A program made the translations under genes and the position numbers. Shown one piece after another: positions 38,005-59,744 of a stretch of 64,000 nt of DNA; within the stretch, counting starts at the first letter, position 1, and each line of letters opens with the position of its first letter. The stretch lies in IMG/VR virus record IMGVR_UViG_3300045988_086557; one strand, written 5' to 3'. The notes beneath the pieces are model-generated. The model was not told where the DNA came from and did no database searches. It was given only the letters and a program-made list of their open reading frames with translations. This stretch comes from a virus.

Positions 38005-38023
38005 TCTTCTTCACTCCTTCCAA

Positions 38024-38713
38024 TTAACCTACACGCTGTACTTTTACACCAGGTTGAAGATCTGGCATAGTATACACTTTTACTACTGCAAAGATAGGAT
38101 CTAAATCTCCACCTTTAGCAGAAGTTTCAGTATCTTTAGTTAAATATCCATCAGTATCAATCTTTAGACGATCGCCTACTGCAAGTTCTCCGGCATTAGC
38201 CTTAATGGTATTAGTAGTCCAAATATCGCCAATACTAATCTTAATTACGCGAGGTACCATTTTAGTTCCTTCTGGCATCAATGCAGGATAAGTAAATGTC
38301 TCCATATTTTTCTTATATGCTACATCACTACCTTCGCGCACAGCTTCTCCGGTATAATCACTTATTGTAGCAAGTGTAGAAACTGTTTGTCCAATTGGAC
38401 TATATACACGAGCATTATAATTATCCTTAATCATAGCAAAATCAGCATCAGTTTCGCGATCTCTATAAATCTTTACTTCATTAAATACCATCATCCAGGC
38501 GCCAGAAATAGCTTCCGTACTAAAATCGCATACGCCTTTTGCATAATCATACTTTACAAATTGACCGTTCTCAAGAATCTCAATAGTGCTAGCTGCGGGA
38601 AGCTGAGCATATACTTGACCATTTCTTGGAGCGGAAAGATGGTTTGGCTCCACTTGACCATATCCATACTGGACAAAAGTGGCATTACCTAATCTTTTAG
38701 AACTCTTAGCCAT
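38024..38713 (-). CDS. capsid decoration-like / second capsid protein (229 aa, TAG-free)
   Basis: between scaffold and MCP as in SPP1-like head modules. Confidence 0.35.
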   Translation of the reverse strand: MAKSSKRLGNATFVQYGYGQVEPNHLSAPRNGQVYAQLPAASTIEILENGQFVKYDYAKGVCDFSTEAISGAWMMVFNEVKIYRDRETDADFAMIKDNYNARVYSPIGQTVSTLATISDYTGEAVREGSDVAYKKNMETFTYPALMPEGTKMVPRVIKISIGDIWTTNTIKANAGELAVGDRLKIDTDGYLTKDTETSAKGGDLDPIFAVVKVYTMPDLQPGVKVQRVG

Positions 38714-38726
38714 TCTTTAATCCTCC

Positions 38727-45984: not shown

Positions 45985-46052
45985 CATATAATAACAAAAA
46001 AAAACTAGATTGTCAAATCTTATTTGATTAATTTATTTAAAAATGCTATAAT
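45985..46052. promoter_or_regulatory. divergent consensus sigma-A promoters (leftward TTGACA-TGnTATTAT; rightward TTGATT-N17-TGcTATAAT)
   Basis: hexamers read directly in the 100-bp AT-rich gap between the oppositely oriented gene blocks. Confidence 0.5.
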
Positions 46053-46088: not shown

Positions 46089-46421
46089 ATGTTCTTTGAC
46101 GAACCATATTTAGATTTACCGGAAAAAGCATAGTATTATTTTAATATCTTAATAATCAGTATTGCTATATCTCCATAGTATGCTTAGGAAATCTTCCAAA
46201 ATAAAGCAATAAGTTTATGGGATATTTAGGGAGTTAATGATCCTAGACCTATTGCTATTCATATATATACTTCTTACCATATTAATAAAGATTTTGACTA
46301 TGAAGTATAGTGTATTCCTCACTAGGTATTAGAAGTTAATGAAAATGAAATATCTTTCTATGAAATGATTGATTACGATACTAGTGACCCTTGGAGGCTT
46401 GATCCAGATGCAATAGATTAA
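46089..46421 (+). CDS. hypothetical protein (about 110 aa, 7 in-frame TAG)
   Basis: ATG after GGAGATT; continuous only through TAG. Confidence 0.3.
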
Positions 46422-47193
46422 TATAAAAGAATATTTTCAACAATAGGTAAACAAATTGCGGGAGATTAGTGGTAATGTTCCATCACTCATGATTATCGAC
46501 GCAACAGCCTAGGATCTCGCGAATCAAATTTATATTCGTAATAAAATAAAAGACTTTAATGCTCTTGGTTGGGAAGCAGAAGTGTTTAGAGCGAATAGTT
46601 CAGTAGAGTTAAGATTACTCTTAGGCCATGCAAAAGACTGGGATGCGGTAATAGTTCAAATGCCAGTAGCAAATGGAATTGATTTCAATTATAGTCAAAT
46701 ACCTATCTCTAAAGATGCGGATGGTTTAAATCCTATGAGCAATATTACTCCAGCAACAGTAAGAGGAATTATAGACTATTTGGATGAATGTGGTTTTAAC
46801 TACGAAGGTAAATCTGCTGTTGTTTTGGGAAGAAGCGATATTGTAGGAAAGCCAATGGCTAAAGCTCTACTGGATAGAAATATGACCGTATCAGTATGTC
46901 ATAGCAAAACAGATATAAATACAAAACTCTATTTAACAAGGCAAGCAGATTTAATTGTCTCTGCGGTAGGAAAATTTAGCTTAACAAGAGAAGCCTGTCC
47001 TAACGCTATTGTTATAGATGTTGGTATTCGCAGAAATGAAGCAGGAATTATTCTTGGTGATTTTGTAGAAATTGATGAAATCGCAAAAAGAAATAATGTA
47101 TGGTCAACTCCTGTCCTCGGAGGAGTAGGTCTATTAACAAGATTGGGGTTGATGAAAAATTGTTTATAGTTAGCGAAACAGGCGCAAAGATAA
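46408..47193 (+). CDS. folD: bifunctional methylene-THF dehydrogenase/cyclohydrolase FolD (about 261 aa); N-terminal 58 codons contain 4 in-frame TAG, C-terminal 200 codons none
   Basis: 'DLANQIYIRNKIK' (cf. 'DPASQVYVRNK'), 'DAVIVQMPVANGID', 'KDADGLNP', 'AVVLGRSDIVGKPMAKALL', 'TVSVCHSKT', 'IVIDVGI', 'STPVLGGVGLLT'. The track ORF starts internally at GTG. Confidence 0.85.
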
Positions 47194-47546
47194 TGAAATT
47201 TTCGGGAGATTTTGACAAATATGCTGAAGAAGTTCTTCATATTAACAATCCCTTTCGAAAATTTTATCATACACAAAGTCCTTCAGTATTTAAAACTAAC
47301 ACCGATGGTATCATAACAATAGATATGGAAGAATCTCGAAAAATATATGAAGAAACAAAAGTAAATAGAGAAGAATGGATTAAATTAAGAGATAGATATG
47401 TCGCAGAAAGAATACTGCGGGAACTTGGATATGAAGTTCTATTAACCTCGTCTTATTTTGAATACTATCCTGATGCTATTCCTTGTGAAGGAGCGTCAGG
47501 GCAATGCACAATAGACTGTAGAATGAATGGGTGTAAATATGAGTAA
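47193..47546 (+). CDS. hypothetical protein (117 aa)
   Basis: ATG overlaps folD stop (TAATG); Cys-rich C-terminus. Confidence 0.4.
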   Translation: MKFSGDFDKYAEEVLHINNPFRKFYHTQSPSVFKTNTDGIITIDMEESRKIYEETKVNREEWIKLRDRYVAERILRELGYEVLLTSSYFEYYPDAIPCEGASGQCTIDCRMNGCKYE

Positions 47547-47726
47547 AATGTGTCCTTGTATTGATTATTGTTATAATAGATTCGGTCGGTAGTACACACC
47601 AGACTGCGACAATACTTGCGATTATGCAATTAAAGTTAAAGAAAATAAAATTCTTAAAGAATATTTAAAGAGATTGGCGGCGGAAACAAATAGTTTACAC
47701 ACTTTATTTGAAGATTGGGATAATTA
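47539..47726 (+). CDS. small Cys-rich protein (62 aa) with one in-frame TAG
   Basis: 'MSKMCPCIDYCYNRFGR.YTPDCDNTCDY'. Confidence 0.35.
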
Positions 47727-47771
47727 AATTATCCACTTCTGCCCAACCGCACGGAAGAAAGGAAACTGCAA

Positions 47772-48539
47772 ATGAGACGAGAAGAGCTCAAACAATACGC
47801 GCAATCGCATTACGCAGACATTAAAGTGAGACTCAAGGAAGATACAGATCGCGCAATTATAAACTCTGAAATTTTTGGCCCCAATCTTCCTTTTCCGCAA
47901 AAACCGCGAGAAACCTACCATAATACCTTTTATCTTAAAGATCAAGATAGCGTATCCTGTCTATTCAGTTTAACCGATCGGAGCAAGACTGCGATCTTAA
48001 ATTATGCAAGCTATAAACATCCAGGTGGTTACTTCCTTGGAGGCAGCTCTGCACAAGAAGAGGCATTGTGTCACGAAAGCAACCTTTATCCTATTCTTCT
48101 TGCTTTTGATGATACTTATTACGCATGGAATAGACAGAGACTAAATCGAGCCCTATATCTTGATAGAGCTATCTATACTCCTGATGTAGTCTTTGAAAAA
48201 GACAATGGTAGAAAATTAGCTGATGTAATTACTTGTGCTTCTCCTAATTATAGAACAGCACATACTTATCAGCAAGTTCCTCTTTCTCTAAACAATAGGA
48301 TAATGGAAGAGAGAATTAATTTTATGTATCGGATTGCCGAGGCTAAGGGAGTGGAAAATTTAATCGCGGGAGCCTGGGGCTGTGGTGTTTTTATGCAAGA
48401 TCCATCAACGGTCGCCACCTTGCTCGTAAACGCAGCCCGCAATTATAATATTCCAAATATCTATTTTGCGATTCCAAACCGCAATTCCCGCAATTTTAGA
48501 ATTTTCTTGGAGGTTTTGGAAAAATGTTCAAGCAATTAA
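47772..48539 (+). CDS. macro-domain / bacterial-type PARG-like (TIGR02452/DUF2263-like) ADP-ribose-processing enzyme, 255 aa
   Basis: 'LNYASYKHPGGYFLGGSSAQEEALCHESNLY' and 'GAWGCGVFMQDP' match family signature blocks. Confidence 0.6.
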   Translation: MRREELKQYAQSHYADIKVRLKEDTDRAIINSEIFGPNLPFPQKPRETYHNTFYLKDQDSVSCLFSLTDRSKTAILNYASYKHPGGYFLGGSSAQEEALCHESNLYPILLAFDDTYYAWNRQRLNRALYLDRAIYTPDVVFEKDNGRKLADVITCASPNYRTAHTYQQVPLSLNNRIMEERINFMYRIAEAKGVENLIAGAWGCGVFMQDPSTVATLLVNAARNYNIPNIYFAIPNRNSRNFRIFLEVLEKCSSN

Positions 48540-48961
48540 TTATTGCGAGACGAGACTTAAATATGTCTCCAGGGAAACTTGCCGCACAAGTTTCCCATGC
48601 TTCTATTGCTTTTCTTTTGGAAAAGTTATATTGGGGAAGTAAAGAAGTTGTTAAAGAAAGAGACGGTCTTATGTATCATATAGGAATAAGCCTCGATAGA
48701 GACTTATTCCATAATTGGATAGCGGAAGCGGAGACCAAAGTAGTTTGTAGAGCGAAGAATAAGAATGATTTGTTAAAGGCTGTTAAGATAGCAGAAGAAT
48801 TAGGATGGGAAGAGAATAAGGATTATTGGCTTATCTATGATGCTTGTAGAACAGAGTTAGAACGCGAAGGCCCGGAAGGGACTTTGACGTGTATTGGATT
48901 TAGGCCAATGGAGGCGGAAGAAATTGACAAAATTGGGAAGAAGTATCAGCTTTATAATTAA
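48524..48961 (+). CDS. peptidyl-tRNA hydrolase, PTH2 family (145 aa); overlaps upstream gene by 16 nt
   Basis: 'IIARRDLNMSPGKLAAQVSHASIAF', 'KVVCRAKN', 'YWLIYDACRTELEREGPEGTLTCIGFRP'. Confidence 0.7.
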   Translation: MFKQLIIARRDLNMSPGKLAAQVSHASIAFLLEKLYWGSKEVVKERDGLMYHIGISLDRDLFHNWIAEAETKVVCRAKNKNDLLKAVKIAEELGWEENKDYWLIYDACRTELEREGPEGTLTCIGFRPMEAEEIDKIGKKYQLYN

Positions 48962-49166
48962 TATAGTTTTGATTTTACTATTGTTGACTGCTTGCGTGGA
49001 GGAGAACAATCGTTATCCAAGGCTAGAGTATATTCCTACAATGTGGAGATCTGATGCGATTAATATTAAATTAGAAGATGGATATATCTTAAAAGGATAT
49101 GAAACGATAGAAACTGAGGATGGATATAATTTGATTTTTAGTTTTGAGGCAACCGACGATGGATAA
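48894..49166 (+). CDS. small predicted lipoprotein (start uncertain, possibly internal near 48960)
   Basis: signal/lipobox-like 'IVLILLLLTAC'. Confidence 0.3.
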   Translation: MDLGQWRRKKLTKLGRSISFIINIVLILLLLTACVEENNRYPRLEYIPTMWRSDAINIKLEDGYILKGYETIETEDGYNLIFSFEATDDG

Positions 49167-49287
49167 AGTATTAGTATGGTTTGACGGTAAGCATTATTAT
49201 AATATATGCGCAGTCTGTGGAGAATTATATCCAATTTACAAAGTAGAAGATCATATTATATATAATTTAAAGAAGAAGTGTAAATGC

Positions 49288-49320
49288 GGAGAGAAGAAGT
49301 GAGTTCTTCTCTCTTTTTCG
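49288..49320 (+). terminator. intrinsic terminator
   Basis: 'GAGAAGAAgtgagTTCTTCTC' + TCTTTTT. Confidence 0.5.
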
Positions 49321-49516
49321 TTATTGAGATTGAAAAGTTGATTTAGATTTTGAAATGGCGTGGCAGAACGATTTCACCAAAAAATTTCCAGTTTTTCCCA
49401 AAATACACGCCCCTCTTTCACATGGTAAAGTATTGAAGTGTAGTTGGCCTCTTTCGCTCGCTAAAGTACGAAAGCAAGAAAGCACGCCCCTAAAGGAATA
49501 CGCGCGCGTAAAGGGT

Positions 49517-49533
49517 TTGTGCAAACTGCACAA
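49517..49533. promoter_or_regulatory. perfect palindromic operator 'TTGTGCAaacTGCACAA' in an ORF-free GC-richer 220-bp region
   Basis: same TTGTGCAA half-site recurs in inverted pairs before 5 other early promoters. Confidence 0.5.
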
Positions 49534-49587
49534 CAAGATGTTATTTATTTTGTGCAAAAGAGAGAGAAAGAAATTTCAAAAAAACTA

Positions 49588-49712
49588 TTGACAAGTGAGC
49601 GTTTTGGTGGTAAACTGGACTTGTCCAGTAGGACAGAGACAAAAGCACAGCACTTTGAAAATTAAAAAATTTCAAAAAAGGTATTGACAAACTGCTAAAG
49701 GTTTGATACAAT
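49588..49712 (+). promoter_or_regulatory. two tandem consensus promoters (TTGACA-N17-TAAACT; TTGACA-N17-TACAAT)
   Basis: hexamers with TGn extended -10; the segment between them resembles the one in the 57.4-57.6 kb promoter array. Confidence 0.55.
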
Positions 49713-49765
49713 ACAGACAGAACAAAAGAGAATCACACCACAAAAAGAAAGGGAGTCAAAAGAGT

Positions 49766-50140
49766 ATGAAAAAGATTGATTTTACCAATGAAGATCGAGC
49801 CATTATTATGGAGTATATGGCGGCTAAGATGGCTAAGTCTGCGGCGGAGGCGGCGGAGAAAGCAGCTAAGGCTAAGGCTAAAGAGCTATTCTCCAGATTA
49901 GGTAAGGCTTTTAAGGCTACGGACAAAACAAGTTATCTATATGGCACGGTACAAATGCAGGGTAAGGCGAAAGCGGTGGTATATAAAGAAACTACCGCAA
50001 AAGGAACGGTTGACTGGAAAGCCTATGCTATGGCATTAGGTGGAACGGAAGCCGAAGCAGAGCAATTCCGCAGACCTTCCGATATTCGTACCTCTTTTGA
50101 TTGGGCGACAAAGACCCAAGAAGAAGAAATTAGAGGATAA
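49766..50140 (+). CDS. hypothetical Ala/Lys-rich protein (124 aa)
   Basis: AAAGGGAG RBS; ends TAA; followed by 14-bp perfect hairpin 50150..50185. Confidence 0.45.
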   Translation: MKKIDFTNEDRAIIMEYMAAKMAKSAAEAAEKAAKAKAKELFSRLGKAFKATDKTSYLYGTVQMQGKAKAVVYKETTAKGTVDWKAYAMALGGTEAEAEQFRRPSDIRTSFDWATKTQEEEIRG

Positions 50141-50407
50141 CAGTTTATAAACCCTGCCTTGCAAAACACAAGGCAAGGCAGGGTTATAATAATTAAAAGA
50201 AAGGGGTATACTATATGTATCAATTACAGGTTTTAGCCAATGAGAAAATGCGCTATTATGAACCATCCACCCTTTCAATGGCAAGATGGAAAGCCAGTCA
50301 CGAGATAGTCAATCCCAATCATTGGATTGTAGATTTATCCAGTGGAGAAATCGTAGATTAAAAAGAAGCTGACCTAACGGCTATACGGGGAGAAAGGATA
50401 AAAGACT

Positions 50408-50710
50408 ATGAACAATTATATTAAGTGGTTCGTTGGGCCTACTTTTAGAAAGCATGAATTTATTAAACTTTTGCGGTATAAGATGAATGTGCGTTCCGCA
50501 GAGGTAGAGGACGGCATCATCTTAGACCTGGATGCTTTTAATGCCATGCGAGTGGCCTATATGCCACACTGGGCTTATATCAATAGAAAGTTTATCAATA
50601 GCAATCTGCATACCAGAATTGCAAGCGAAGATGAATATAAGATTGCTATGGTTGGAGATACAATCGGTACTGAATGGGTTAAAGAACAGGAGGCAAAGAA
50701 ATGGAAATGA
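50408..50710 (+). CDS. hypothetical protein (100 aa)
   Basis: track ORF; ends TGA overlapping next ATG (ATGA). Confidence 0.45.
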   Translation: MNNYIKWFVGPTFRKHEFIKLLRYKMNVRSAEVEDGIILDLDAFNAMRVAYMPHWAYINRKFINSNLHTRIASEDEYKIAMVGDTIGTEWVKEQEAKKWK

Positions 50711-50853
50711 GAATTATTAAGCGGATAGGAGGCGGCATTTGTGCCGCTCTCCTACTCTGGACAGTTCTTAGTTGGGCTGATATAGTGGCGGATAACTGTG
50801 AGCCAAACCCACAGCACAGCGAATATAATATGTTCGTTCTCATGACTAAATAA
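50707..50853 (+). CDS. small membrane peptide (48 aa), translationally coupled
   Basis: 'GGGICAALLLWTVLSWA' hydrophobic core. Confidence 0.35.
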   Translation: MRIIKRIGGGICAALLLWTVLSWADIVADNCEPNPQHSEYNMFVLMTK

Positions 50854-50865
50854 TAGGAGGAAAAA

Positions 50866-51099
50866 ATGTATAGAGGGACTTATATCGACGCCATGGGCCG
50901 CAAGCGCAGAGAGATGGGATATTTCAGTCTTAATAAGCCCACTCTGAATAAACTCCATATACCAGTAATTGTCCAAGCGAGAGATAAGACAAGTGCGGCG
51001 AATAAAATCAATAGGAAATATAAATTGCGTATAAGTCCCAGCAATCTGCGGGAGGTGCCGATGGGCACGGGCTATCTCATGGAAACCATGGAGCTGTAA
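50866..51099 (+). CDS. hypothetical basic protein (77 aa)
   Basis: GGAGG RBS; track ORF. Confidence 0.4.
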   Translation: MYRGTYIDAMGRKRREMGYFSLNKPTLNKLHIPVIVQARDKTSAANKINRKYKLRISPSNLREVPMGTGYLMETMEL

Positions 51100-51112
51100 A
51101 GGAATAATACTT

Positions 51113-51216
51113 GACTGGCAATCTACACAAAGATTGCCAGTCATTTTTATGCACTTTTCCATATTGACTTTTCGCCGGGCCGCCAGCGTGCGCCGCGGCC
51201 CGAATTTTTATTTATT
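51113..51216 (+). terminator. cassette boundary module A: intrinsic terminator + GC-rich 'CGGGCCGc..gCGGCCCG' hairpin/T-tract
   Basis: 'GACTGGCAATC..GATTGCCAGTC'+ATTTTTAT; then 'CGCCGGGCCGCCAGCGTGCGCCGCGGCCCG'+AATTTTTATTT. Confidence 0.65.
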
Positions 51217-51246
51217 CGGCAATTTCAACAATTATATGACCGAAAG

Positions 51247-51313
51247 TTTGTGCAATTCGACGAAAGTTTTTCTCCCGAAATTACTTGACATTCCTTTTCC
51301 CATGTGTTATTAT
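51247..51313 (+). promoter_or_regulatory. module A operator half-site TTGTGCAAT + promoter TTGACA-N17-TATTAT (TGT extended)
   Basis: read directly. Confidence 0.6.
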
Positions 51314-51366
51314 ATACTTGTCCAAAGGGACAGGTCACAAAAAGAATTTGAAAGGAAGTAAAAAAA

Positions 51367-51606
51367 ATGACTTTAGATATGGTTGCTTGGTTACTTTCTC
51401 CGCTTGCAGAAGATACTATGTTCTTTGACGGGGAGGGATTCGAAATTATCAATAAGAATACCCAAGCTCATTACCATGAATTACCTGATGGTAGAATAAC
51501 TCTGGGAGGAGACGTAATCGAGGTATCTAAGGAATGGGTTCTGGGACTTCAGGTAACCGGCATTGAGGCAAGAGATAACAATTTAATCATTTATGTAGAT
51601 GGTTAA
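51367..51606 (+). CDS. hypothetical protein (79 aa)
   Basis: GAAAGGAAG RBS; track ORF. Confidence 0.45.
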   Translation: MTLDMVAWLLSPLAEDTMFFDGEGFEIINKNTQAHYHELPDGRITLGGDVIEVSKEWVLGLQVTGIEARDNNLIIYVDG

Positions 51607-51668
51607 GAAAACTTGCGGGAGTGGAGGCCACAAACCTCTACTCCCCACGATAAAAAGGAGGAATAAAT

Positions 51669-51884
51669 ATGATTGCTGTTATTAAATTTGAAAGTGCAGA
51701 AAAGTCTGTGGAGTTTGGAAACACAATTTGTAATATGGCTGGCTGGTGTTTGGGTCATCCTCTCAATTCCAATGTTACCGGCTGTGTTTGTACACTTGAT
51801 TTTAATACCGGCGACAAGCAAGATAGAGCCTTATATAATTATCTGCTAAAAATTGGAGCTTTCGAGGAGGTGGAACTAAAGTGA
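51669..51884 (+). CDS. hypothetical Cys-containing protein (71 aa)
   Basis: AAAGGAGG RBS; track ORF. Confidence 0.45.
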   Translation: MIAVIKFESAEKSVEFGNTICNMAGWCLGHPLNSNVTGCVCTLDFNTGDKQDRALYNYLLKIGAFEEVELK

Positions 51885-52085
51885 GTATTGAGCGTTTACC
51901 GCATACATATCCTATCGGTTCCACTGTTTGGACAAATAAGGGATATGGCACAGTTCTACTTCACATTGGTAAATACCATCTGGTTTGGCTACAGAGATTA
52001 GGGCTGGCGTAATGCCGGCCCTATTGATTTTTTCAAAAAAATATATTATAATAATTATAGAAAAATAAAGAAAGGAGTTTTTCTA

Positions 52086-52202
52086 ATGACCTTAGAAGTG
52101 CTGAAAGCACTCGCGGTTATTTTGGAGTTCTGTTTGAACTAGGATTCTTGCAAGAATTGTCCTATGTCTCAGTTCTGCCAGAAAATGCCTTGCGAGTGGT
52201 AA
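52086..52202 (+). CDS. small Cys-rich peptide (about 38 aa) with one in-frame TAG
   Basis: 'MTLEVLKALAVILEFCLN.DSCKNCPMSQFCQKMPCEW'. Confidence 0.3.
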
Positions 52203-52294
52203 ATGTTCCTTCCGATTGTTCTAAATCGGCGATTCCCGTGATGGAGTCGTTTTTCGCACGAGCCTAGGTCACTAGAATTTATTTATCAAAATGC

Positions 52295-52525
52295 AAGAAA
52301 CTACTTTCTCTCGCAAATTGGATTCAAGTGGTAGAATTATGATTCCGATTCGTTTGCGTGAACAAATGGGACTTACTTCCGGTTAGGAATACTATTTCAC
52401 TACTATGGTAAAAGATGGCAGAAAATACATCTGCATTGACTGCGGATCGGTTGATTCCTCACTTGAAGAAGCTATGAAAATTATCCAAGCAAACGGATTA
52501 AAGATTGTTGAAAATGCCGATTGAC
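52295..52525 (+). CDS. AbrB-family (swapped-hairpin) transition-state-regulator-like protein, about 76 aa, with one in-frame TAG at codon 32
   Basis: 'RKLDSSGRIMIPIRLREQMGLTSG[TAG]EYYF' aligns with AbrB 'RKVDELGRVVIPIELRRTLGIAEKDALEIYV'; start codon/RBS weak. Confidence 0.5.
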
Positions 52526-52564
52526 TTCTCAAAAGAAAGGGAGTTGTTGGTATGCAGAAATTAA

Positions 52565-52643
52565 TGACCTCCTGAAATTCAGGAGGTTCTTTTTTTATTC
52601 GTTCGCCCGGCCGTGCACCACAGGCGCGGCCGGAATTTTTTAT
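52565..52643 (+). terminator. cassette boundary module B: intrinsic terminator + GC-rich hairpin/T-tract
   Basis: 'ACCTCCTGaaatTCAGGAGGT'+TCTTTTTTT; 'GCCCGGCCGTGCACCACAGGCGCGGCCGG'+AATTTTTT. Confidence 0.65.
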
Positions 52644-52650
52644 CAAGAGG

Positions 52651-52743
52651 CAATTTGCACAATTTTAGGCTCGAATTGTTGTGCAATCTGATGGAAGATT
52701 TTTTCCCAAAATCGCTTGACTTTCTATCTGTTATCTGTTATAC
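52651..52743 (+). promoter_or_regulatory. module B inverted-repeat operator TTGCACAA-N16-TTGTGCAA + promoter TTGACT-N17-TATACT
   Basis: read directly. Confidence 0.6.
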
Positions 52744-52797
52744 TTGTATCATCAAGAGGGGAGAACAAAAGCCCTCGAAACAAAAGGAGAATGAGTT

Positions 52798-53031
52798 ATG
52801 TATCTGGTAATGGCTGACAGTAGAGAAAAGATTATCGGCGTTTCTGATACTGAAACTGGCGCACGCCATGCGGGATGGGACTGGCTCAAGGCCCAGTATT
52901 CCGAAAGCGAGTGGAGCCAAATTCTGGAAGATATGGACTATGAGAATGAAGGGGACTTGCGGCATGACCTTCTCATGGGCGCATATTGGGAAGATTTCGA
53001 TATGGAGATTATCGAGGTTAAGAGGGTATAA
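52798..53031 (+). CDS. hypothetical acidic protein (77 aa)
   Basis: AAAGGAGAATG RBS; track ORF. Confidence 0.45.
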   Translation: MYLVMADSREKIIGVSDTETGARHAGWDWLKAQYSESEWSQILEDMDYENEGDLRHDLLMGAYWEDFDMEIIEVKRV

Positions 53032-53060
53032 ACCCTCTTAACCAGAAAAGGAGTATATAT

Positions 53061-53213
53061 ATGACTACCTTCACAATGATTGTTTTGATTGCGTTTGTGG
53101 CCTGCCTTGCATGGCAGTTAATGGCGGCTGCTCAAAAGAGCTGTATTCGGCTTGAAATCATGTTTGCCGCAGAAATTCTAATGTTCGCATATTTGGCAAA
53201 AAATTTGATGTAA
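53061..53213 (+). CDS. small membrane protein (50 aa)
   Basis: AAAAGGAG RBS; single TM 'MIVLIAFVACLAWQLMAAA'. Confidence 0.4.
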   Translation: MTTFTMIVLIAFVACLAWQLMAAAQKSCIRLEIMFAAEILMFAYLAKNLM

Positions 53214-53217
53214 AGGG

Positions 53218-53246
53218 TTGACAAACCGCTTAAACAGTGGTATAAT
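53218..53246 (+). promoter_or_regulatory. consensus promoter TTGACA-N17-TATAAT (TGg extended)
   Basis: read directly. Confidence 0.6.
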
Positions 53247-53297
53247 CAATAATGTAAAGAGAAGGAAAACTCATTAAACCAGAAAGGAAATATTGCT

Positions 53298-53528
53298 ATG
53301 TATAGAATGACTGAGCAGGATAGACAGGGGATTATTCTTCTGCATAAGACCATGGAGGAGTTCTGCCCAGGAGAAGCAGCACAGGCAATGCTCCAGTCTT
53401 TGGGAAAATTCCTGCGGATCGGCATGTGTACTCCCGATGACGCGGCCGATATTATCAAGGGTATTTTCGATGAGGAAGCCGATAAGACAGTTGATGAAAT
53501 GACTATGATGGATTTACTTTCCTTGTAA
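53298..53528 (+). CDS. hypothetical protein (76 aa)
   Basis: GAAAGGAAA RBS; track ORF. Confidence 0.45.
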   Translation: MYRMTEQDRQGIILLHKTMEEFCPGEAAQAMLQSLGKFLRIGMCTPDDAADIIKGIFDEEADKTVDEMTMMDLLSL

Positions 53529-53536
53529 AAAAGGGG

Positions 53537-53565
53537 TTGACAAACTGCCCCTTCTGTGGTACAAT
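53537..53565 (+). promoter_or_regulatory. consensus promoter TTGACA-N17-TACAAT
   Basis: read directly. Confidence 0.55.
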
Positions 53566-53623
53566 AAGACTATGGAAGGGGCAGCCCCAAAAATAAATTA
53601 AAATAAGAAAGGGAGTTTTAGAA

Positions 53624-54022
53624 ATGCGTGTTACTAAGAGGATTGAAGCCTATATCAATGATGAGGTCAACAAGATTGCGAACGCCAAGCGAGAGGAAAT
53701 CAGAGCCAAGTATGCGGACGCTATGAAAGAGTTTGAGGATTTCATCGAGGAAGGCCGAAAAGAGATTGAGGCGCTGAATACAAGGATTATTGAGCGCGCC
53801 ACAGCGAAGGGATATAAGCTCCGCCGCTATTATGACCAGGAGTGTGCCAAGTCAAATATGTGCAGTCTTTACAACCCCATCAACCAAACGATGGATGAAG
53901 AGCTGTCCACTGTGACAAAGTGGGTAGAGGAAAATGCAAGTCTGATCTGCGTCAAGCTGGAAATGGGCGGCGACATGAAAACTCTGTCTACTCTGCTGGA
54001 CGAACTGCGGAAATCGCTTTAA
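53624..54022 (+). CDS. hypothetical coiled-coil protein (132 aa)
   Basis: AAGGGAG RBS; followed by 8-bp GC hairpin 54031..54067. Confidence 0.45.
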   Translation: MRVTKRIEAYINDEVNKIANAKREEIRAKYADAMKEFEDFIEEGRKEIEALNTRIIERATAKGYKLRRYYDQECAKSNMCSLYNPINQTMDEELSTVTKWVEENASLICVKLEMGGDMKTLSTLLDELRKSL

Positions 54023-54076
54023 GGAAAGGAGGCGCGGGAGTATAGGACTTGTATTCTATGCTCCCGCGATAAAAAA

Positions 54077-54535
54077 ATGAGAGCTGTTGGTATTGTTCGA
54101 CATATTGATGACCTAGGGCGTATTGTTATTCCTAGAGAAATTCGTAGGAGTATGCGAATTAGAGAAGGCGACCCTATGGAAATTTTTCTTGATGGCGACT
54201 GTATAGCCTTCAAGAAATATTCTCCACTATCTTTTTTCGTTGACCATGCCCACGAAATGCGAAATGCCCTTTCTGTTAATCACATTTCCGCGGCGATCTT
54301 CGATTCAGATAAACTTTTAAGCGGGCCTAGTTCTTTCAAAATTTCTATACCACCAGATGAATGGAGTAATATCAGCCAACCTGCGACAGCGTGGAAATCT
54401 ATGTTTATTACTCCCATTTTTTCTGATGGGGGACAAATTGGATTCATTTGTTACAAAAATCTGCACAATGATGAATCTATTCACGAAATGGTTAAATTAG
54501 TCGCAAGGTATTTTTCAAATATGGCTGAAAGATAA
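54077..54535 (+). CDS. SpoVT-like regulator: AbrB-type N-terminal DNA-binding domain + truncated GAF-like C-terminal domain (152 aa)
   Basis: 'GIVRHIDDLGRIVIPREIRRSMRIREGDPMEIFLDGDCIAFKKYSP' is near-identical in pattern to B. subtilis SpoVT 'GIVRRIDDLGRVVIPKEIRRTLRIREGDPLEIFVDRDGEVILKKYSP'. Confidence 0.75.
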   Translation: MRAVGIVRHIDDLGRIVIPREIRRSMRIREGDPMEIFLDGDCIAFKKYSPLSFFVDHAHEMRNALSVNHISAAIFDSDKLLSGPSSFKISIPPDEWSNISQPATAWKSMFITPIFSDGGQIGFICYKNLHNDESIHEMVKLVARYFSNMAER

Positions 54536-54619
54536 AAGAAGGGCTTCGGCCCTTCTTTTTTATACACTAAAAATTCGACGGCGCGCTGACGCACGCGGCG
54601 CGCCGAGTTTTCTTATTTG
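54535..54619 (+). terminator. cassette boundary module C: intrinsic terminator + GC-rich hairpin/T-tract
   Basis: 'GAAGGGCttcgGCCCTTC'+TTTTTTAT; 'CGACGGCGCGCTGACGCACGCGGCGCGCCG'+AGTTTTCTTATTT. Confidence 0.65.
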
Positions 54620-54648
54620 TAAGTTCTACACAATTTTTGTCTTGAAAT

Positions 54649-54695
54649 CTTGTGCAATTCGCCATCTTGCAATTATCCTTAAATTATGGTATTAT
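54649..54695 (+). promoter_or_regulatory. module C operator TTGTGCAAT(tcgccatc)TTGCAAT + promoter TTGCAA-N17-TATTAT (TGg extended)
   Basis: read directly. Confidence 0.55.
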
Positions 54696-54722
54696 TAGTA
54701 CAGAAAAAAGGAGGGGTACTAA

Positions 54723-54971
54723 ATGAAACCTTCAAAGTTTATTCAGCCCAATGAATACTTAACCGTGGCTGAAATTTATCGTAGACAATTCGGGCATACT
54801 ACTACCCCGGTTAATTATGAGGTTTATATACGAACTGTGCTTTTACAAGACCCTCTGATCTATATAGATTGTATGTCAATGCCTTATAAGGTATATCGGC
54901 GTAAAACTTTTTTTGAAAAACTTGTTGACAAGGTGTGCAATAAATGGTATAATAAAACAAAAGGAGATTGA
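54723..54971 (+). CDS. hypothetical protein (82 aa); its 3' end contains the promoter of the next gene
   Basis: AAGGAGGGG RBS; internal TTGACA-N17-TATAAT at 54925..54953. Confidence 0.4.
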   Translation: MKPSKFIQPNEYLTVAEIYRRQFGHTTTPVNYEVYIRTVLLQDPLIYIDCMSMPYKVYRRKTFFEKLVDKVCNKWYNKTKGD

Positions 54972-54977
54972 TATACA

Positions 54978-55439
54978 ATGACTAAAAAAATGCTCTGCTT
55001 TGACATGGATGGAACTATCGCGGACTTGTATGCAGTCCCTAATTGGCTCGAAAAACTCCGCAATGGAGACCCTACCCCATTCCGAGACGCGGCCCCTATG
55101 TGGGACATGGAAGCCCTCCGAAATGCGCTTCTAAAGGCAATCAATAACGGATGGGAAATTAGAGTAATTACATGGCTACCACCTGAAAGCACTCCCGAAT
55201 ATAAGAAAGCAGTCACAGCCGCAAAAAAGGAATGGCTTGCAAGGTATAAATTTCCGGCCCATAAATGTCATTGTGTGGCATACGGAACGACCAAAGCCAA
55301 ATGTGTATTCCGTAGTTTCTATGAACCGCCGTTTATCCTTTTTGATGATAATGATAAAATTAGGTACGGTTGGCATTTAGGAGATACAATAAATCCAGGA
55401 GAGACAGACATAATCGAATATATCAACAATTTGGACTGA
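54978..55439 (+). CDS. HAD-superfamily 5'(3')-deoxyribonucleotidase-like protein (153 aa)
   Basis: motif I 'LCFDMDGTIADL', downstream 'FILFDDNDK'; overall NT5C-like layout. Confidence 0.55.
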   Translation: MTKKMLCFDMDGTIADLYAVPNWLEKLRNGDPTPFRDAAPMWDMEALRNALLKAINNGWEIRVITWLPPESTPEYKKAVTAAKKEWLARYKFPAHKCHCVAYGTTKAKCVFRSFYEPPFILFDDNDKIRYGWHLGDTINPGETDIIEYINNLD

Positions 55440-55441
55440 AT

Positions 55442-55466
55442 GGGGCGGGGTGAAAATCCCCGCCCC
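55442..55466. repeat. hairpin 'GGGGCGGGGtgaaaatCCCCGCCCC', copy 1 of 2 (second at 58085..58107)
   Basis: identical 23-nt core at both sites, each immediately after a gene stop. Confidence 0.5.
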
Positions 55467-55488
55467 ACAAAGAAAGGGAGTTTTGTCA

Positions 55489-55683
55489 ATGCAAATTAAG
55501 AAAGTTAATAGGCTCATTTTTGATTCAACGGAAAAACAAACATTGAGAAATGCTTCAATTCTCATAAGCCAGATTAGCCGGAGCATGGAAGAGAATGAAA
55601 TTGATGATGATTTTCCTGTCTCTCTTGATGATCTGGTATATGGGATAGATGAACTAATCAATAGGGAATATATTGGATATTAA
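55489..55683 (+). CDS. hypothetical acidic protein (64 aa)
   Basis: AAAGGGAG RBS. Confidence 0.4.
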   Translation: MQIKKVNRLIFDSTEKQTLRNASILISQISRSMEENEIDDDFPVSLDDLVYGIDELINREYIGY

Positions 55684-55688
55684 AAATA

Positions 55689-55773
55689 CCCCTCTCATTA
55701 TTGAGAGGGGTATTTTTTTATTGTCGTTTGGGCGGCCCGCGCTTGGGCGGTGCGGGCCGAATTTTTTTCTTTG
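55689..55773 (+). terminator. cassette boundary module D: intrinsic terminator + GC-rich hairpin/T-tract
   Basis: 'CCCCTCTCattattGAGAGGGG'+TATTTTTTTA; 'GGCGGCCCGCGCTTGGGCGGTGCGGGCCG'+AATTTTTTTCTTT. Confidence 0.65.
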
Positions 55774-55778
55774 TAGAT

Positions 55779-55849
55779 GTTGCACAATTTTGGCGGCGAA
55801 AAGTTGTGCAATTTGCCATCTTGCAATTCTCCCAAAAGTATGGTATTAT
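55779..55849 (+). promoter_or_regulatory. module D inverted-repeat operator TTGCACAA-N19-TTGTGCAA + promoter TTGCAA-N17-TATTAT
   Basis: read directly. Confidence 0.6.
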
Positions 55850-55980
55850 TATCATGTCAGGAGGGAGAGGCCAAGAAATCAAGAGGTCGCGAACTCTTAG
55901 AAAGTAAAGGAAGCAAAGTATACGGCTAAATTTCAATTAGCTACTGAAAGGATTAAGCCAAAAAAACTTTCCTTTTCCTC
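55850..55980 (+). ncRNA. candidate small non-coding transcript (about 130 nt) between the module D promoter and a second promoter
   Basis: consensus promoter upstream, no ORF longer than 17 codons, no RBS; second promoter TTGACA-N17-TATAAT at 55981..56009 serves the exonuclease gene. Confidence 0.25.
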
Positions 55981-56043
55981 TTGACACCAAGCCTTAAATG
56001 TGCTATAATAATACCATCAAGAGAAGAAAGGACTTGATAGATT

Positions 56044-56868
56044 ATGATTGATAAGCGCAGACATTATGTGCTGGTGGTTGACACTGAAACCGCCAACACA
56101 CTAACCGAAACCGTTCCCGCTGAAATCGGAGAGGATGGGGAGATTATTACTCCTGAGCGTGTCCGCATGGATATGTCAAATGTACTGGTATATGACTGCG
56201 GTTGGGCTGTAGTAGATACCAAGGGCAATATTTACGAAACTGCAAGTTTTGTAAATCGGGACATTTTCAATGACGAGCGAGACTTAATGCGGACGGCCTA
56301 TTATAATTGGAAAATCCCCCGCTATGTTGAGGAATTGCGGGCCGGCACTCGCAAGATGGCTACTACTTATGAAATCCGTCAGGCTATGCTTGATACTATC
56401 GAGCGATACGGAATTAAGGAAGTGGCTGCTTATAATGCCCGGTTTGACGATAACGCTCTGCGGGTCACTCAACGATGGGTCACTTGCTCTAAGTTTCGCT
56501 ACTGGTTCCCGTTTGACAGTGTGGAAATTTGGGATATTATGAAGATGACACAAGATGTTATCTGCAATATGCCCACTTATAAGAAATTCTGTCAGGAAAA
56601 TGGATATATCCAAGCCAATGGCGTTCCCCGTAAGACTGCGGAAATCGTGTGGCGGTTTATCTCTGGAAATACCGATTTTGAGGAAAGTCATACGGGGCTT
56701 GAAGATGTTCTCATTGAGGCGGAAATCATGTGGTACTGTATGCGCCAACATAAGCCCATGAGAAAGGCCCTGTATGAGAATAGGAAGGAATTTCCTCCTA
56801 TGACAGACTTTCAGCGTCAGCTTTCCGCAAGTATGCGGAATGTACCTACTATTCGAGTCGGGGCTTAA
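56044..56868 (+). CDS. DnaQ-like DEDDh 3'-5' exonuclease (274 aa)
   Basis: Exo I 'VVDTETA', Exo II 'AAYNARFDDNAL', Exo III 'SHTGLEDVLIEAEI'. Confidence 0.65.
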   Translation: MIDKRRHYVLVVDTETANTLTETVPAEIGEDGEIITPERVRMDMSNVLVYDCGWAVVDTKGNIYETASFVNRDIFNDERDLMRTAYYNWKIPRYVEELRAGTRKMATTYEIRQAMLDTIERYGIKEVAAYNARFDDNALRVTQRWVTCSKFRYWFPFDSVEIWDIMKMTQDVICNMPTYKKFCQENGYIQANGVPRKTAEIVWRFISGNTDFEESHTGLEDVLIEAEIMWYCMRQHKPMRKALYENRKEFPPMTDFQRQLSASMRNVPTIRVGA

Positions 56869-56911
56869 CGCCCCGCTCCATAAAAAATATCTGAAAAGTA
56901 TGTAAAAAACC

Positions 56912-56940
56912 TTGACAGCTTCACCGAATTGTGGTATAAT
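56912..56940 (+). promoter_or_regulatory. consensus promoter TTGACA-N17-TATAAT (TGg extended)
   Basis: read directly. Confidence 0.6.
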
Positions 56941-56987
56941 TTAATCATCAAGAGGGAATAACCCTCATAAAAGAAAGGGAGTTTTGT

Positions 56988-57138
56988 TATGATGAATTTC
57001 TATTTTAAGACTGCGGCAGGCCATGTGTTTGCGGGTGTCGGCAAGGATGTTGACCGTGCCCGTTCTGATGCTAAGCGCAAGGCCGGTTCTCTTTGGTCGC
57101 CTTCGGCCAAGTGCTTCAAAATCGGGAACGCTATTTAA
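56988..57138 (+). CDS. small basic protein (50 aa)
   Basis: AAAGGGAG RBS. Confidence 0.4.
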
Positions 57139-57153
57139 GACGTTTCCGACTAA

Positions 57154-57232
57154 AAGAGGGGTTTTACCCCTCTTTTTTTTATACAAAATTGAGCGGGTCG
57201 CGCAGGAGCGGCGCGACCCGAGTTTTTCTTTG
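57154..57232 (+). terminator. cassette boundary module E: intrinsic terminator + GC-rich hairpin/T-tract
   Basis: 'AGAGGGGttttaCCCCTCT'+TTTTTTTTA; 'CGGGTCGCGCAGGAGCGGCGCGACCCG'+AGTTTTTCTTT. Confidence 0.65.
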
Positions 57233-57236
57233 TAAA

Positions 57237-57624
57237 TGTTGCACAAAAATTTCAACCCCGTTTTGTGTAAAATTCTGCACAAAAACTTTCTCCCAAAATT
57301 CCGATTTTTGTGCAATTTGACGCTTGCAATCTGCTTTTGCTTGTGGTAAAATACATTCAGAAAGTGAGAGAGACGAACGGCAGACAGCGACAGCGAATTT
57401 CTCAAAAATCTTTCAAGAATCTCTTGACAAGCCTTTGAAGATGTGCTATAATAAGTACAGAAAACAAGGCAATGCACCTTGAAAATTAAATAAAAAGGGC
57501 TTGACAAACTTTCCAAAGTGTGTTACACTATAAGGGAGGTTGAGAGGGCAAACAAGTAAAGAGCAAAAGTTCTTGAAAAAAGTTTGAAAAACCTCTTGAC
57601 AAGTACCAAATAGTGTGGTACAAT
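57237..57624 (+). promoter_or_regulatory. module E: operator pairs (TTGCACAA...TTGTGTAA, TCTGCACAA...TTGTGCAAT) followed by four tandem consensus promoters (-35 at 57324, 57425, 57501, 57596)
   Basis: four TTG(A/C)CA-N17-TAnAnT hexamer pairs, each with TGn extended -10, within 300 bp upstream of the gene at 57673. Confidence 0.6.
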
Positions 57625-57672
57625 ATAATCAAAGGACAAGGACAGTCCTAAAAACCAGAAAGGATGTATATT

Positions 57673-58074
57673 ATGGACGAGAAGAAAATCCGCATTACTA
57701 AGGCCCAGCGTTTTGAGGACATTAAGGCCCTCTTGACTGACGGCGAGGTAAAGTATGGCACTACCATCGAGGTGGCTATTACTGTCATTGACCATGAGCT
57801 GGAGCTTCTGCGTAAGAAGAATAGCTCTAGCGGTGACAAGAAGCTGACTCCCACCCAGCAGGAGAACGAGAATTTTAAGGAGCAGATTATGGAGTATCTG
57901 GCTGGTCTGGATGCCGATACCGATGGCGTAACCTGCACGGAAATTTTCAAGGCTATTCCTGATCTGACGGCCTATTCTAACCAGAAGGTCGCCGCCCTTG
58001 TGCGGCAGTTGAAACTCGATGGTCGAGTGGTCTGCACGGAGAAGAAGGGCAAGTCCCTCTTTAAGATGGCGTAA
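57673..58074 (+). CDS. putative winged-helix DNA-binding regulator (133 aa)
   Basis: C-terminal 'GVTCTEIFKAIPDLTAYSNQKVAALVRQLKLDGRVVCTEKKGKSLF' wHTH-like; AAAGGA RBS; heavily promoted. Confidence 0.4.
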   Translation: MDEKKIRITKAQRFEDIKALLTDGEVKYGTTIEVAITVIDHELELLRKKNSSSGDKKLTPTQQENENFKEQIMEYLAGLDADTDGVTCTEIFKAIPDLTAYSNQKVAALVRQLKLDGRVVCTEKKGKSLFKMA

Positions 58075-58212
58075 CCCCGTATAGGGCGGGGTGAAAATCC
58101 CCGCCCTAACTTATAATATGGGGGTGATATTATATCCAGTCGCATTAGTGACGCTGAACGGATTGCAAGGTATAAAGCCCTACAATTAACGCCGGAACAG
58201 GAGGCGGAGTTA

Positions 58213-58530
58213 TTGGCCTATGATAAAGCGGTAGAGGCTGATAAAAAGACTGAATACGATTTACCGCCAGATAAGGCAAAAATTGCCCAAAAGTTTGCCC
58301 ATGCGGGGACGAGAAAGGCTCCAACGGCATATAAGTTTACGCCCCGGCAACGCAAGCCAAACGCCACGAAAGGCGGTATAATCGCGGAATTGGCAGAGTT
58401 TTTGGAAAAAAACAGTCAATTCTCTATCGCTGACTTGTCTATTACTAACAAAGAAAGGCAGATTGCGTTTTCTATTGGTGGGGATAGTTTCGAGTTGACG
58501 CTTGTGCAAAAGCGTAAGCCGAAGAAATAA
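58213..58530 (+). CDS. hypothetical basic protein (about 105 aa; TTG start in track)
   Basis: track ORF; followed by GC hairpin 'GGGGTAGGgtcggCCTACCCC'. Confidence 0.35.
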   Translation: MAYDKAVEADKKTEYDLPPDKAKIAQKFAHAGTRKAPTAYKFTPRQRKPNATKGGIIAELAEFLEKNSQFSIADLSITNKERQIAFSIGGDSFELTLVQKRKPKK

Positions 58531-58586
58531 CGGGGTAGGGTCGGCCTACCCCGGCCCTACCAGAAAAGAGGCAAGTTATAGTTAGT

Positions 58587-58937: not shown

Positions 58938-58942
58938 AGAAA

Positions 58943-59023
58943 AATCTCCCCTTATGGGGAGATTTTTTTTATGCAAAATTTTGAGCGGACCGCTTGCGTG
59001 CGCCGCGGTCCGAATTTTTCTTC
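58943..59023 (+). terminator. cassette boundary module F: intrinsic terminator + GC-rich hairpin/T-tract
   Basis: 'ATCTCCCCttatGGGGAGAT'+TTTTTTTTAT; 'GCGGACCGCTTGCGTGCGCCGCGGTCCG'+AATTTTTCTTC. Confidence 0.65.
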
Positions 59024-59055
59024 TATTGTCATTTTCAACAATTTTGAATTGAAAA

Positions 59056-59102: not shown

Positions 59103-59129
59103 TTAACCATGGAAGGGAGGTAAAAGAAA

Positions 59130-59270: not shown

Positions 59271-59274
59271 AGAA

Positions 59275-59727: not shown

Positions 59728-59744
59728 AGAAAGGAGATTTTTAG

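Follow-up and report, generated by a model that had tools for sequence, protein, structure and literature searches.

The window analysed here is a 64,000-nucleotide stretch of viral DNA, IMG/VR virus record IMGVR_UViG_3300045988_086557, and its subject is a pair of genes on the + strand. The first, at 47772..48539, is a PARG gene of the DUF2263/TIGR02452 type encoding 255 amino acids (aa), and the second, at 48524..48961, encodes a PTH2-type peptidyl-tRNA hydrolase of 145 aa. Each begins with ATG and contains no in-frame TAG. The initial annotation, made from the sequence alone, had described a translationally coupled macro/PARG-like and PTH2 pair, and had proposed for it a role either in anti-defence or in support of a recoded genetic code. 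Judged from profile matches, fold models and active-site residues, both genes appear to encode real, probably active enzymes.

The PARG open reading frame (ORF) matches TIGR02452 over residues 17-245 (E 8.3e-51, 173.1 bits against a cut-off of 50) and PF10021 PARG_cat_microb (E 1.6e-26, 93.9 bits, cut-off 23.5), and a profile built from 18 homologues matches the PARG structures of D. radiodurans (5zdf, 1.4e-37) and T. curvata (3sig, 7e-32). The AlphaFold2 model, with a predicted local distance difference test score (pLDDT) of 86.7, is a macrodomain fold carrying an N-terminal helical extension, as in TcPARG and DrPARG; in Foldseek its template-modelling (TM) score is 0.82 to 3sij/3sig and 0.80 to 5zdc, with other macrodomains at 0.43-0.57. 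The signature of these enzymes is GGG-X6-8-QEE with the catalytic glutamates (PMC8120803). In the window protein the catalytic Q95-E96-E97 (nt 48054-48062) aligns with the QEE of DrPARG and, together with G85 and G86, is invariant in the alignment of the 18 homologues; the glycine run reads P84-G85-G86-Y87, the third glycine being replaced by tyrosine at a position that varies across the phage group. The diphosphate-binding loop, G200-A-W-G-C-G-V-F207 (nt 48369-48392), corresponds to GAWGCGVF in DrPARG and is invariant in the same homologues except at the W/F/Y position. Profiles, fold model and motifs thus bear out the assignment of the first gene to the TIGR02452-type macro/PARG proteins. 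The protein resembles T. curvata PARG, D. radiodurans DRB0099 and S. coelicolor SCO0909 in profile scores, fold (TM 0.80-0.82), QEE motif and GAxGCGVF loop, but differs from the solved bacterial PARGs in being phage-encoded, only 22-29% identical and G-G-Y in place of GGG. With DarG-type macrodomains it has in common the superfamily and the idea of undoing toxic ADP-ribosylation; however, it falls in the PARG-type branch and not the TARG1/DarG-type branch, and has no DarT-like partner. PADLOC gave no match to PARG or PTH2 and no DarG-like match, and PHROGs holds no family matching PARG. The enzyme would cleave ADP-ribose that is linked, via its 1'' carbon, either to a hydroxyl of ribose or to a terminal phosphate. 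A PARG-like domain also occurs in P0086 (389 aa), fused to PF10686 (YAcAr/DUF2493, SLOG-type), a fusion that ties this group of PARGs to proteins predicted to bind nucleotides or derivatives of ADP-ribose.

The PTH2 ORF matches the whole of PF01981 (positions 1-115; E 1.4e-22, 80.5 bits, cut-off 23) and falls under the NCBIfam equivalog cut-offs (82.7 against 126 for NF003314, 65.5 against 82 for TIGR00283), so that by its scores it is a superfamily member outside the archaeal equivalog group. Its model (pLDDT 85.4) has the Pth2 alpha/beta fold, with target-normalised TM scores of 0.77-0.80 to the archaeal and human Pth2 structures 1rlk, 3erj, 1wn2, 1xty and 1q7s. K18 (48575-48577), D106 (48839-48841) and T110 (48851-48853) align with K18, D86 and T90 of S. 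solfataricus Pth2, which Fromant et al. reportedly identified in 2005 as catalytic residues, and are invariant across phage, bacterial and archaeal sequences, as is the G-K...Q..H motif. Membership of the PTH2 family, as first proposed, is therefore borne out by the PF01981 match, the fold model and the aligned active site. The fold and the aligned K/D/T residues are those of the archaeal enzymes (S. solfataricus, P. horikoshii, T. acidophilum Ta0108) and of human PTRH2/Bit1. Compared with the archaeal enzymes of 115-120 aa, however, the window protein has a beta-hairpin insertion at about residues 39-53, after helix 1, a longer loop ahead of the last strands, and D-A-C-R-T in place of D-A-G-x-T; D-x-C-x-T is found in most of this PTH2 clade, and insertions extend some relatives up to 198 aa. 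It would be expected to cleave the ester joining a peptide or an N-blocked amino acid to the 3'-terminal ribose of tRNA. The ORF belongs to PHROG 1866 together with its jumbo-phage homologues, although it lies in a 145-kb, non-jumbo genome. That PTH2 is rare in phages is correct as to numbers, with 16 of 50,697 deposited phage records, but the family had already been described in jumbo phages (PMC7824862).

The two ORFs share 16 nt on the + strand (48524..48539), as initially described, but the translational coupling claimed along with this overlap is not borne out for two reasons: first, PTH2 has its own Shine-Dalgarno sequence, GGAGG at 48509..48513 on the + strand, within the 3' end of PARG and 10 nt before the ATG. 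Second, relatives differ at the junction: the overlap is 4 nt in L005 and L026, whose PARG is 65% identical, and there is a 1-nt gap in L014, while in L182 the gene order is reversed and two ORFs lie between PTH2 and PARG. Given a separate ribosome-binding site and an unconserved junction, the arrangement is merely ordinary tight operon packing.

The window derives from a siphovirus of gut Clostridia that reads TAG as glutamine and whose genome, at about 145 kb, is not that of a jumbo phage. Near-identical contigs of about 148 kb were binned with Oscillospiraceae and Eubacterium metagenome-assembled genomes, and the host is an Oscillospiraceae/Eubacterium-like member of the gut Clostridia. Once TAG is read as sense, ORFs of 150 aa or longer together amount to 58.6 kb, up from 17.9 kb, and a continuous leftward late operon appears; a 2914-aa tape-measure-like ORF alone contains 101 in-frame TAG codons. 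In TerL, all four TAG codons that fall in columns invariant among three deposited-phage homologues align to Gln, which supports code 15, and the initial assignment to a code-15 phage is upheld by this alignment together with the gain in ORF length. TerL itself shares about 50% identity with the terminases of Enterococcus phages H1/VRE9/EF1, of Geobacillus E3 and of an Alicyclobacillus phage, and 44% with that of TAG-recoded Phass-1; a nucleotide search of 47000-50200 against deposited phages returned no match. No tRNA gene was found in the window, and a linkage of the pair to tRNA arrays was dropped, since such genes occur in only 4 of 41 related loci. About 50% of Gln-type positions in the late genes are TAG. 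PARG and PTH2 together use 12 CAA/CAG codons and no TAG (0 of 12 Gln-type codons), and both are TAG-free in all recoded relatives checked. Given that neither gene contains TAG, both could be translated before or without TAG suppression.

The same TAG avoidance would allow the genes to be in place before a switch of code, which counts in favour of the second role proposed initially, support of the recoded code. In such a role PTH2, perhaps with PARG, would clear peptidyl-tRNA or other by-products that arise while TAG has the two meanings of stop and Gln, or that arise where readthrough of host mRNAs ending in TAG leads to non-stop complexes. Every clear adjacent pair lies in a TAG-recoded phage (the window clade, L014, L182, L216, L190 and L191), which at first sight agrees with this proposal. 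Recoding status is weakly determined from 12-kb loci, in which the early regions of recoded phages resemble the standard code, and for this reason a survey of 80 relatives was anchored on TerL, with recoding called from coding density and in-frame TAG counts in TerL and with "near TerL" meaning within 9 kb. The stop-codon readthrough gain ratio was rejected as a classifier, being unreliable where long antisense ORFs arise; L044-L047 have a 2-3 fold TGA-readthrough gain with no matching gain in coding density. Within the TerL clade, PTH2 lies near TerL in 15 of 29 TAG-recoded loci and in 0 of 22 others. However, all 15 positives come from one subclade with TerL at least 85% identical, and the association is inseparable from ancestry. 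This subclade comprises 16 loci with enough flank, of which 15 carry PTH2 near TerL (two of them fragmentary) and 5 carry an intact PARG there, with PARG decayed in 3 and absent from 8. Near TerL, both genes are missing from the 13 other relatives whose TerL contains in-frame TAG and from the 22 relatives whose TerL does not; two of the relatives lacking in-frame TAG in TerL (3300044856_000229 and 134682) carry PARG far from TerL. Six relatives with TerL 69-72% identical (L367, L371, L379, L382, L383 and L386) have one to three in-frame TGA codons and no TAG in TerL, and this phage clade seems to mix TGA-recoded, TAG-recoded and standard-code members.

Outside the clade, PARG-like genes occur in huge phages, in TAG-recoded Lak phages and, in a cluster of phages of about 213 kb, 5 kb from a suppressor tRNA gene, the last two of which would suit a link with recoding. 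Against such a link, they are carried by Bacillus phage G as well as by those members of the TerL clade that lack in-frame TAG in TerL. The suppressor, at 11525-11599 of L031 downstream of the PARG-like gene, has a CTA anticodon (tRNA-Pyl according to ARAGORN), and this PARG cluster may be TAG-recoded, though the locus itself looks standard-code. PTH2 is found in Xanthomonas (XacN1/Xoo-sp13), Pseudomonas, Stenotrophomonas and Enterococcus (H1/VRE9/EF1) phages, cultured or jumbo, with ordinary ORFs annotated in their records, as well as on the chromosomes of Faecalibacterium and Coriobacteriia; TAG-recoded Phass-1 has no match for either protein. PARG decays even inside recoded lineages. Furthermore, termination at TAG by release factor 1 hydrolyses the peptide off and by itself creates no peptidyl-tRNA. 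The correlation between the pair and recoding is therefore real but wholly confounded with descent from one subclade, and a role in supporting the recoded code is very improbable. In the comparison of recoded with standard-code phages that the initial annotation called for, the clear cases of the adjacent pair are all in recoded phages, but in one subclade, with 13 recoded relatives negative near TerL. The pair is no general feature of recoding and neither gene depends on it.

The adjacent pair is thus confined to one subclade, within one recoded lineage. Relatives in IMG/VR whose PARG is 97% and 65% identical retain both genes, and PARG is the more dispensable of the two: three close relatives hold decayed copies (L314 4485-4967, L321 3571-4284 and L327 3890-4551), one lacking the QEE motif through an internal deletion, one broken up across three frames and one truncated, and the PTH2 beside them is intact or, in L314, absent. 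PTH2 lies within 6 kb of PARG in 5 of the 31 clusters (80% identity) made from 80 PARG loci on viral contigs, and PARG lies nearby in 2 of the 10 clusters made from 80 PTH2 loci. The syntenic anchor is a FolD-like methylenetetrahydrofolate dehydrogenase/cyclohydrolase gene (46408..47193, + strand; PF02882 2.4e-37, PF00763 4.1e-08; four in-frame TAG), which lies upstream of PARG and/or PTH2 in L014, L015, L182, L186, L190 and L191. What follows FolD differs: a 77-aa ORF, PARG and a 198-aa PTH2 in L014; an 80-aa ORF, PTH2, two small ORFs and PARG in L182; a 121-aa ORF and PTH2 with no PARG in L186; and, in L015, AAA_28, PARG and DUF5662 among the genes after FolD, with no PTH2. In the Enterococcus phages DHFR is followed by PTH2, with FolD a few genes off and no PARG. 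The slot after FolD is a variable region in which unrelated genes are gained and lost, and the description of the pair as a new accessory module for a code-15 phage was overstated; these are two independently mobile accessory genes in a variable slot.

This raises the possibility that the two genes merely share a slot and have no functional connection, PARG reversing protein or DNA ADP-ribosylation (for example by host ADP-ribosyltransferase toxins or DarT-like enzymes) or removing the marks of a phage-encoded ADP-ribosyltransferase, and PTH2 merely raising tRNA recycling capacity during the burst of phage translation. Each gene does occur alone in the same slot (PTH2 in L186, PARG in L015), and alone elsewhere, as in the Enterococcus phages. 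Within the TerL subclade, PTH2 at 15 of 16 loci is set against intact PARG at 5 of 16; neither junction nor gene order is conserved, no PARG-PTH2 fusion exists among 240 listed homologues, and on the chromosomes of Faecalibacterium and Coriobacteriia it is beside an HAD hydrolase that PTH2 is found. As the main rival, this reading agrees well with the way in which the two genes come and go independently, and is given a lower but still appreciable probability. Three points speak against it: first, adjacency survives rearrangement, down to 41-46% identity (L028/L043, L182, L216), albeit all within one phage lineage. Second, PTH2 occurs near three families of ADP-ribose hydrolase in unrelated settings. 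Third, the RNA ligase and phosphoesterase families that recur beside PARG recur, separately, beside PTH2.

The last two points come from the neighbourhoods of homologues elsewhere. Among 120 flanking proteins from 23 dereplicated PARG clusters, the commonest family is RNA ligase (PF09414 three times, RNA_lig_T4_1 once), followed by PNK-like AAA_33/KTI12 and Metallophos (two each), a Tad8 Thoeris inhibitor and an RNase T-type exonuclease. A Pnkp-Rnl1 fusion precedes PARG in L017, PARG is followed by an RNA ligase in L079, by Metallophos in L084 and by RNase_T in L086, with an RNA ligase a short way downstream of that last gene, and in the 12-locus L029 cluster a homologous phosphoesterase is directly upstream of PARG. 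For PTH2, RtcB is immediately downstream in L137, with a NadR-like gene nearby; L171 and Lacrimispora L194 have a Pnkp-Rnl1 fusion close by; in L124 PTH2 is flanked by Metallophos and an ATP-dependent ligase; eight loci of the largest cluster have a PF09414 ligase 1.5-3 kb upstream; and Metallophos is near PTH2 in L213. As to ADP-ribose hydrolases, PTH2 recurs beside three families: PARG-like genes in the window clade, L058 and L216, an ARH 3 kb upstream in L171, and Macro plus ARH two genes downstream of the chromosomal PTH2 in five Faecalibacterium species. The chromosomal cluster, seen at 3617-10816 of L208 (F. prausnitzii UT1) and conserved in L202, L203, L206 and L211, reads TudS, HAD, low-molecular-weight phosphatase, pentapeptide protein, PTH2, two unknown proteins, Macro, ADP-ribosylglycohydrolase and PNP/UDP phosphorylase; only remnants of its Macro-ARH part persist in L204, L207 and L209, and Coriobacteriia keep the HAD-PTH2 pair. 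A putative conserved partner encoded after PTH2 (about 180 aa) in Enterococcus phages, prophage-type loci and Faecalibacterium was considered and rejected, the proteins being unrelated by BLASTP.

Published work gives these contexts a possible biochemical meaning. In a panel of macrodomain, ARH and NADAR hydrolases, only those of the PARG type, the bacterial DUF2263 proteins SCO0909 and DRB0099 included, undo RhsP2-type ADP-ribosylation at the 2'-OH of RNA, non-PARG macrodomains being inactive on this substrate; the same PARG-type enzymes clear ADP-ribose from RNA 5'-phosphates and protect E. coli from the toxin, and DRB0099 itself is located in an operon between an RNA/DNA ligase and HD-Pnk (PMC11833690). 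For PTH2, noted in group 2/3 jumbo phages by Iyer et al. in 2021, it was proposed that the enzyme frees peptides from tRNAs on jammed ribosomes during RNA repair, after tRNA cleavage (PMC7824862), and the PrfH-RtcB pairing is a precedent for a peptidyl hydrolase coupled to RNA repair. A 2022 survey of viral NAD and ADP-ribose systems mentions neither PARG nor Pth, and no description of PARG-PTH2 adjacency was found in a limited literature search.

It is suggested that the pair are accessory enzymes that keep the translation apparatus usable under attack, through the reversal of RNA and tRNA damage. This is the best-supported reading, which we hold tentatively and rate at somewhat short of an even chance. 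PARG would remove ADP-ribose placed by ADP-ribosyltransferases of the host or of competitors on the 2'-OH of structured RNA or on 5'-phosphate ends of RNA, while tRNA trapped as peptidyl-tRNA when ribosomes stall or drop off would be recycled by PTH2, and both enzymes could be made without TAG suppression; substrates, expression timing and a purpose in counter-defence are all inferred. Support for damage to RNA comes from the homologues of PARG and PTH2, since these independently adjoin RNA-repair genes, and the patchy gain, loss and decay of PARG within one subclade is the pattern expected of a conditionally useful counter-defence gene. Given that each gene occurs without the other in close relatives, the pair shares a theme but is not an obligate two-part machine. 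An anti-defence role, as first proposed, is thus still plausible, but the targets then named for it, DarT-like and other ADP-ribosyltransferase toxins for PARG and GNAT toxins for PTH2, are unsupported by any PADLOC or DarG-like match or by any GNAT, ADP-ribosyltransferase or defence gene nearby; what the contexts of the homologues and the published biochemistry of PARG indicate is rather ADP-ribosylation directed at RNA, together with RNA repair.

Several observations weigh against the reversal of RNA damage as the shared task. PARG enzymes act also on protein-linked poly(ADP-ribose), and the present evidence does not distinguish RNA from protein or DNA as the substrate of this PARG. The variability of the slot after FolD means that the adjacency of the two genes could be incidental, large phages cluster accessory genes in any case, and the neighbour associations are counts from a few dozen dereplicated loci without a matched control, and are suggestive only. 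The 64-kb window, out of a genome of about 145 kb, contains no RNA ligase, RtcB, PNK or phosphoesterase (no homologue of the Pnkp-Rnl1, PF09414 ligase, RtcB or Metallophos neighbours found elsewhere), and no ADP-ribosyltransferase or recognisable defence or anti-defence gene. Pfam, applied to 20 neighbouring proteins, found only FolD and two AbrB/MazE-like proteins, with no ADP-ribosyltransferase, GNAT, ligase or NAD enzyme, and PADLOC gave for the window neighbours only weak DEDDh/CARF-type matches (E about 1e-3). Finally, the predicted operon of the pair includes the TAG-bearing genes for FolD and for a 110-aa protein, and early expression is inferred from TAG avoidance alone.

Comparison with known RNA-repair sets (T4 Pnkp/Rnl1, RtcB-PrfH and DRB0100-DRB0099-DRB0098) illustrates both sides. 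The theme of an enzyme that frees or repairs RNA together with one that removes a blocking group is common to all, and homologues of PARG and of PTH2 are each found within such sets elsewhere; in contrast, the window lacks a ligase, a kinase/phosphatase and a release-factor-like component, and the pair alone cannot reseal cleaved RNA. Arrangements like the ligase, PARG and kinase/phosphatase of DRB0100-DRB0099-DRB0098 occur in L017, L079, L084 and L086 and not in the window, so that other phages' PARGs adjoin RNA ligases or end-healing enzymes as DRB0099 does, while the window PARG has no such partner.

A closer connection between the two enzymes can be envisaged, in which they act in sequence on one molecule: a host ADP-ribosyltransferase would block tRNA, or aminoacyl-/peptidyl-tRNA, by modifying a ribose hydroxyl at the acceptor end, PARG would remove the ADP-ribose and PTH2 the acyl group, leaving a chargeable tRNA-CCA; alternatively, this PTH2 clade may have shifted to acyl-ADP-ribose esters. 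Both enzymes cleave substituents of ribose hydroxyls, and the 1''-2' ribose-ribose specificity of PARG fits 2'-OH RNA ADP-ribosylation (PMC11833690). The recurrence of PTH2 with PARG, ARH and Macro hydrolases is in keeping with such a scheme, as are the divergence of its clade from the archaeal enzymes (the insertions, and D-x-C-x-T in most members) and the scores under the equivalog cut-offs. However, the canonical Pth2 catalytic residues are intact and favour ordinary activity, PARG and PTH2 are often apart and are nowhere fused among the listed homologues. No report of ADP-ribosylation at the tRNA 3' end was found in the literature retrieved, and we know of none. Both forms of this scheme are improbable. 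Of a similarly low order is the broader idea that PTH2 and the ADP-ribose hydrolases (PARG, ARH, Macro) are recurrent functional partners in clearing ribose hydroxyls at the acceptor ends of tRNA or in other structured RNA; and there is but a slim chance that the phage pair is a minimal counter to an undescribed host or competitor system which ADP-ribosylates tRNA or aminoacyl-/peptidyl-tRNA, or that this PTH2 clade hydrolyses acyl-ADP-ribose esters.

The pair sits in the middle of the first rightward operon, beside the packaging genes. The predicted start of this unit is a promoter-like site (TTGATT-17-TATAAT with TG, 46024..46052, + strand) at the divergent junction with the leftward packaging and structural operon, for which a mirror promoter-like site lies at 46016-45988; a strong terminator-like hairpin with an 11-bp stem and a T run (49288..49314, + strand) is the predicted end, and a strong promoter-like site follows at 49684-49712, all four being matches from a consensus scan only. 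The first gene (46089..46421, + strand) encodes 110 aa with six in-frame TAG and no family match. Between FolD and PARG, on the + strand, lie a TAG-free ORF with a Cys-rich C-terminus (47100..47546; 148 aa from the first ATG, no Pfam or PADLOC match) and a small Cys-rich ORF (47527..47727; 66 aa, one TAG). After PTH2, and overlapping its last 68 nt, comes a 90-aa ORF with a TTG start and no family match (48894..49166, + strand), whose basic N-terminus, hydrophobic stretch and "LLLLTAC" lipobox-like signal suggest a small lipoprotein, perhaps with a part in exclusion or simply in the membrane. The final gene ahead of the terminator-like site (49144..49302, + strand) encodes 52 aa with CxxC...CxC spacing and no family match.

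Elsewhere in the window, three consecutive genes of the late operon (36354-38716, - strand) are TAG-free amid neighbours in which about half of Gln codons are TAG; they include a 350-aa ORF, possibly the major capsid protein, and the most abundant proteins may in this way dodge dependence on suppression. The block at 50000-60000 has a G+C content of 0.40-0.44, against 0.30-0.35 elsewhere, and TAG-free genes. Two of these, at 52291-52524 and 54077-54535, encode AbrB/MazE-like regulators and one, at 56044-56868, a DEDDh-like exonuclease; most of the remaining ORFs in the block have no family match. A diversity-generating retroelement occupies 2417-6497, with a variable repeat at 4148-4250, a template repeat at 4871-4973 and a reverse transcriptase-like ORF with a YMDD motif at 5271-6497. 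Its repeats are 103 nt long and 83% identical, each mismatch being an A in the copy on the reverse transcriptase side, and the variable copy forms the 3' end of a TAG-containing ORF of 541-616 aa rich in Thr/Ser repeats.

Both enzyme types are known from large phages and are found here in a lineage from which they had not been described; their pairing is a lineage-specific arrangement with a functional theme that is plausible but unproven. Bacterial-type PARGs were shown in 2025 to undo 2'-OH ADP-ribosylation of RNA and to protect cells from an RNA-targeting toxin; the window locus and the roughly 30 dereplicated phage PARG contexts are candidates for asking whether phage PARG defeats RNA-directed ADP-ribosyltransferases, and the same loci bear on whether a little-studied clade of phage and bacterial PTH2 belongs to the translation-rescue toolkit. 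For recoded phages the useful results are negative, in that the pair is no general requirement of TAG recoding, while the strict exclusion of TAG from both genes ranks the pair with those that have to function in the standard code. Should the association between PTH2 and ADP-ribose hydrolases turn out to be a functional one, a kind of tRNA damage not so far recognised would be indicated.

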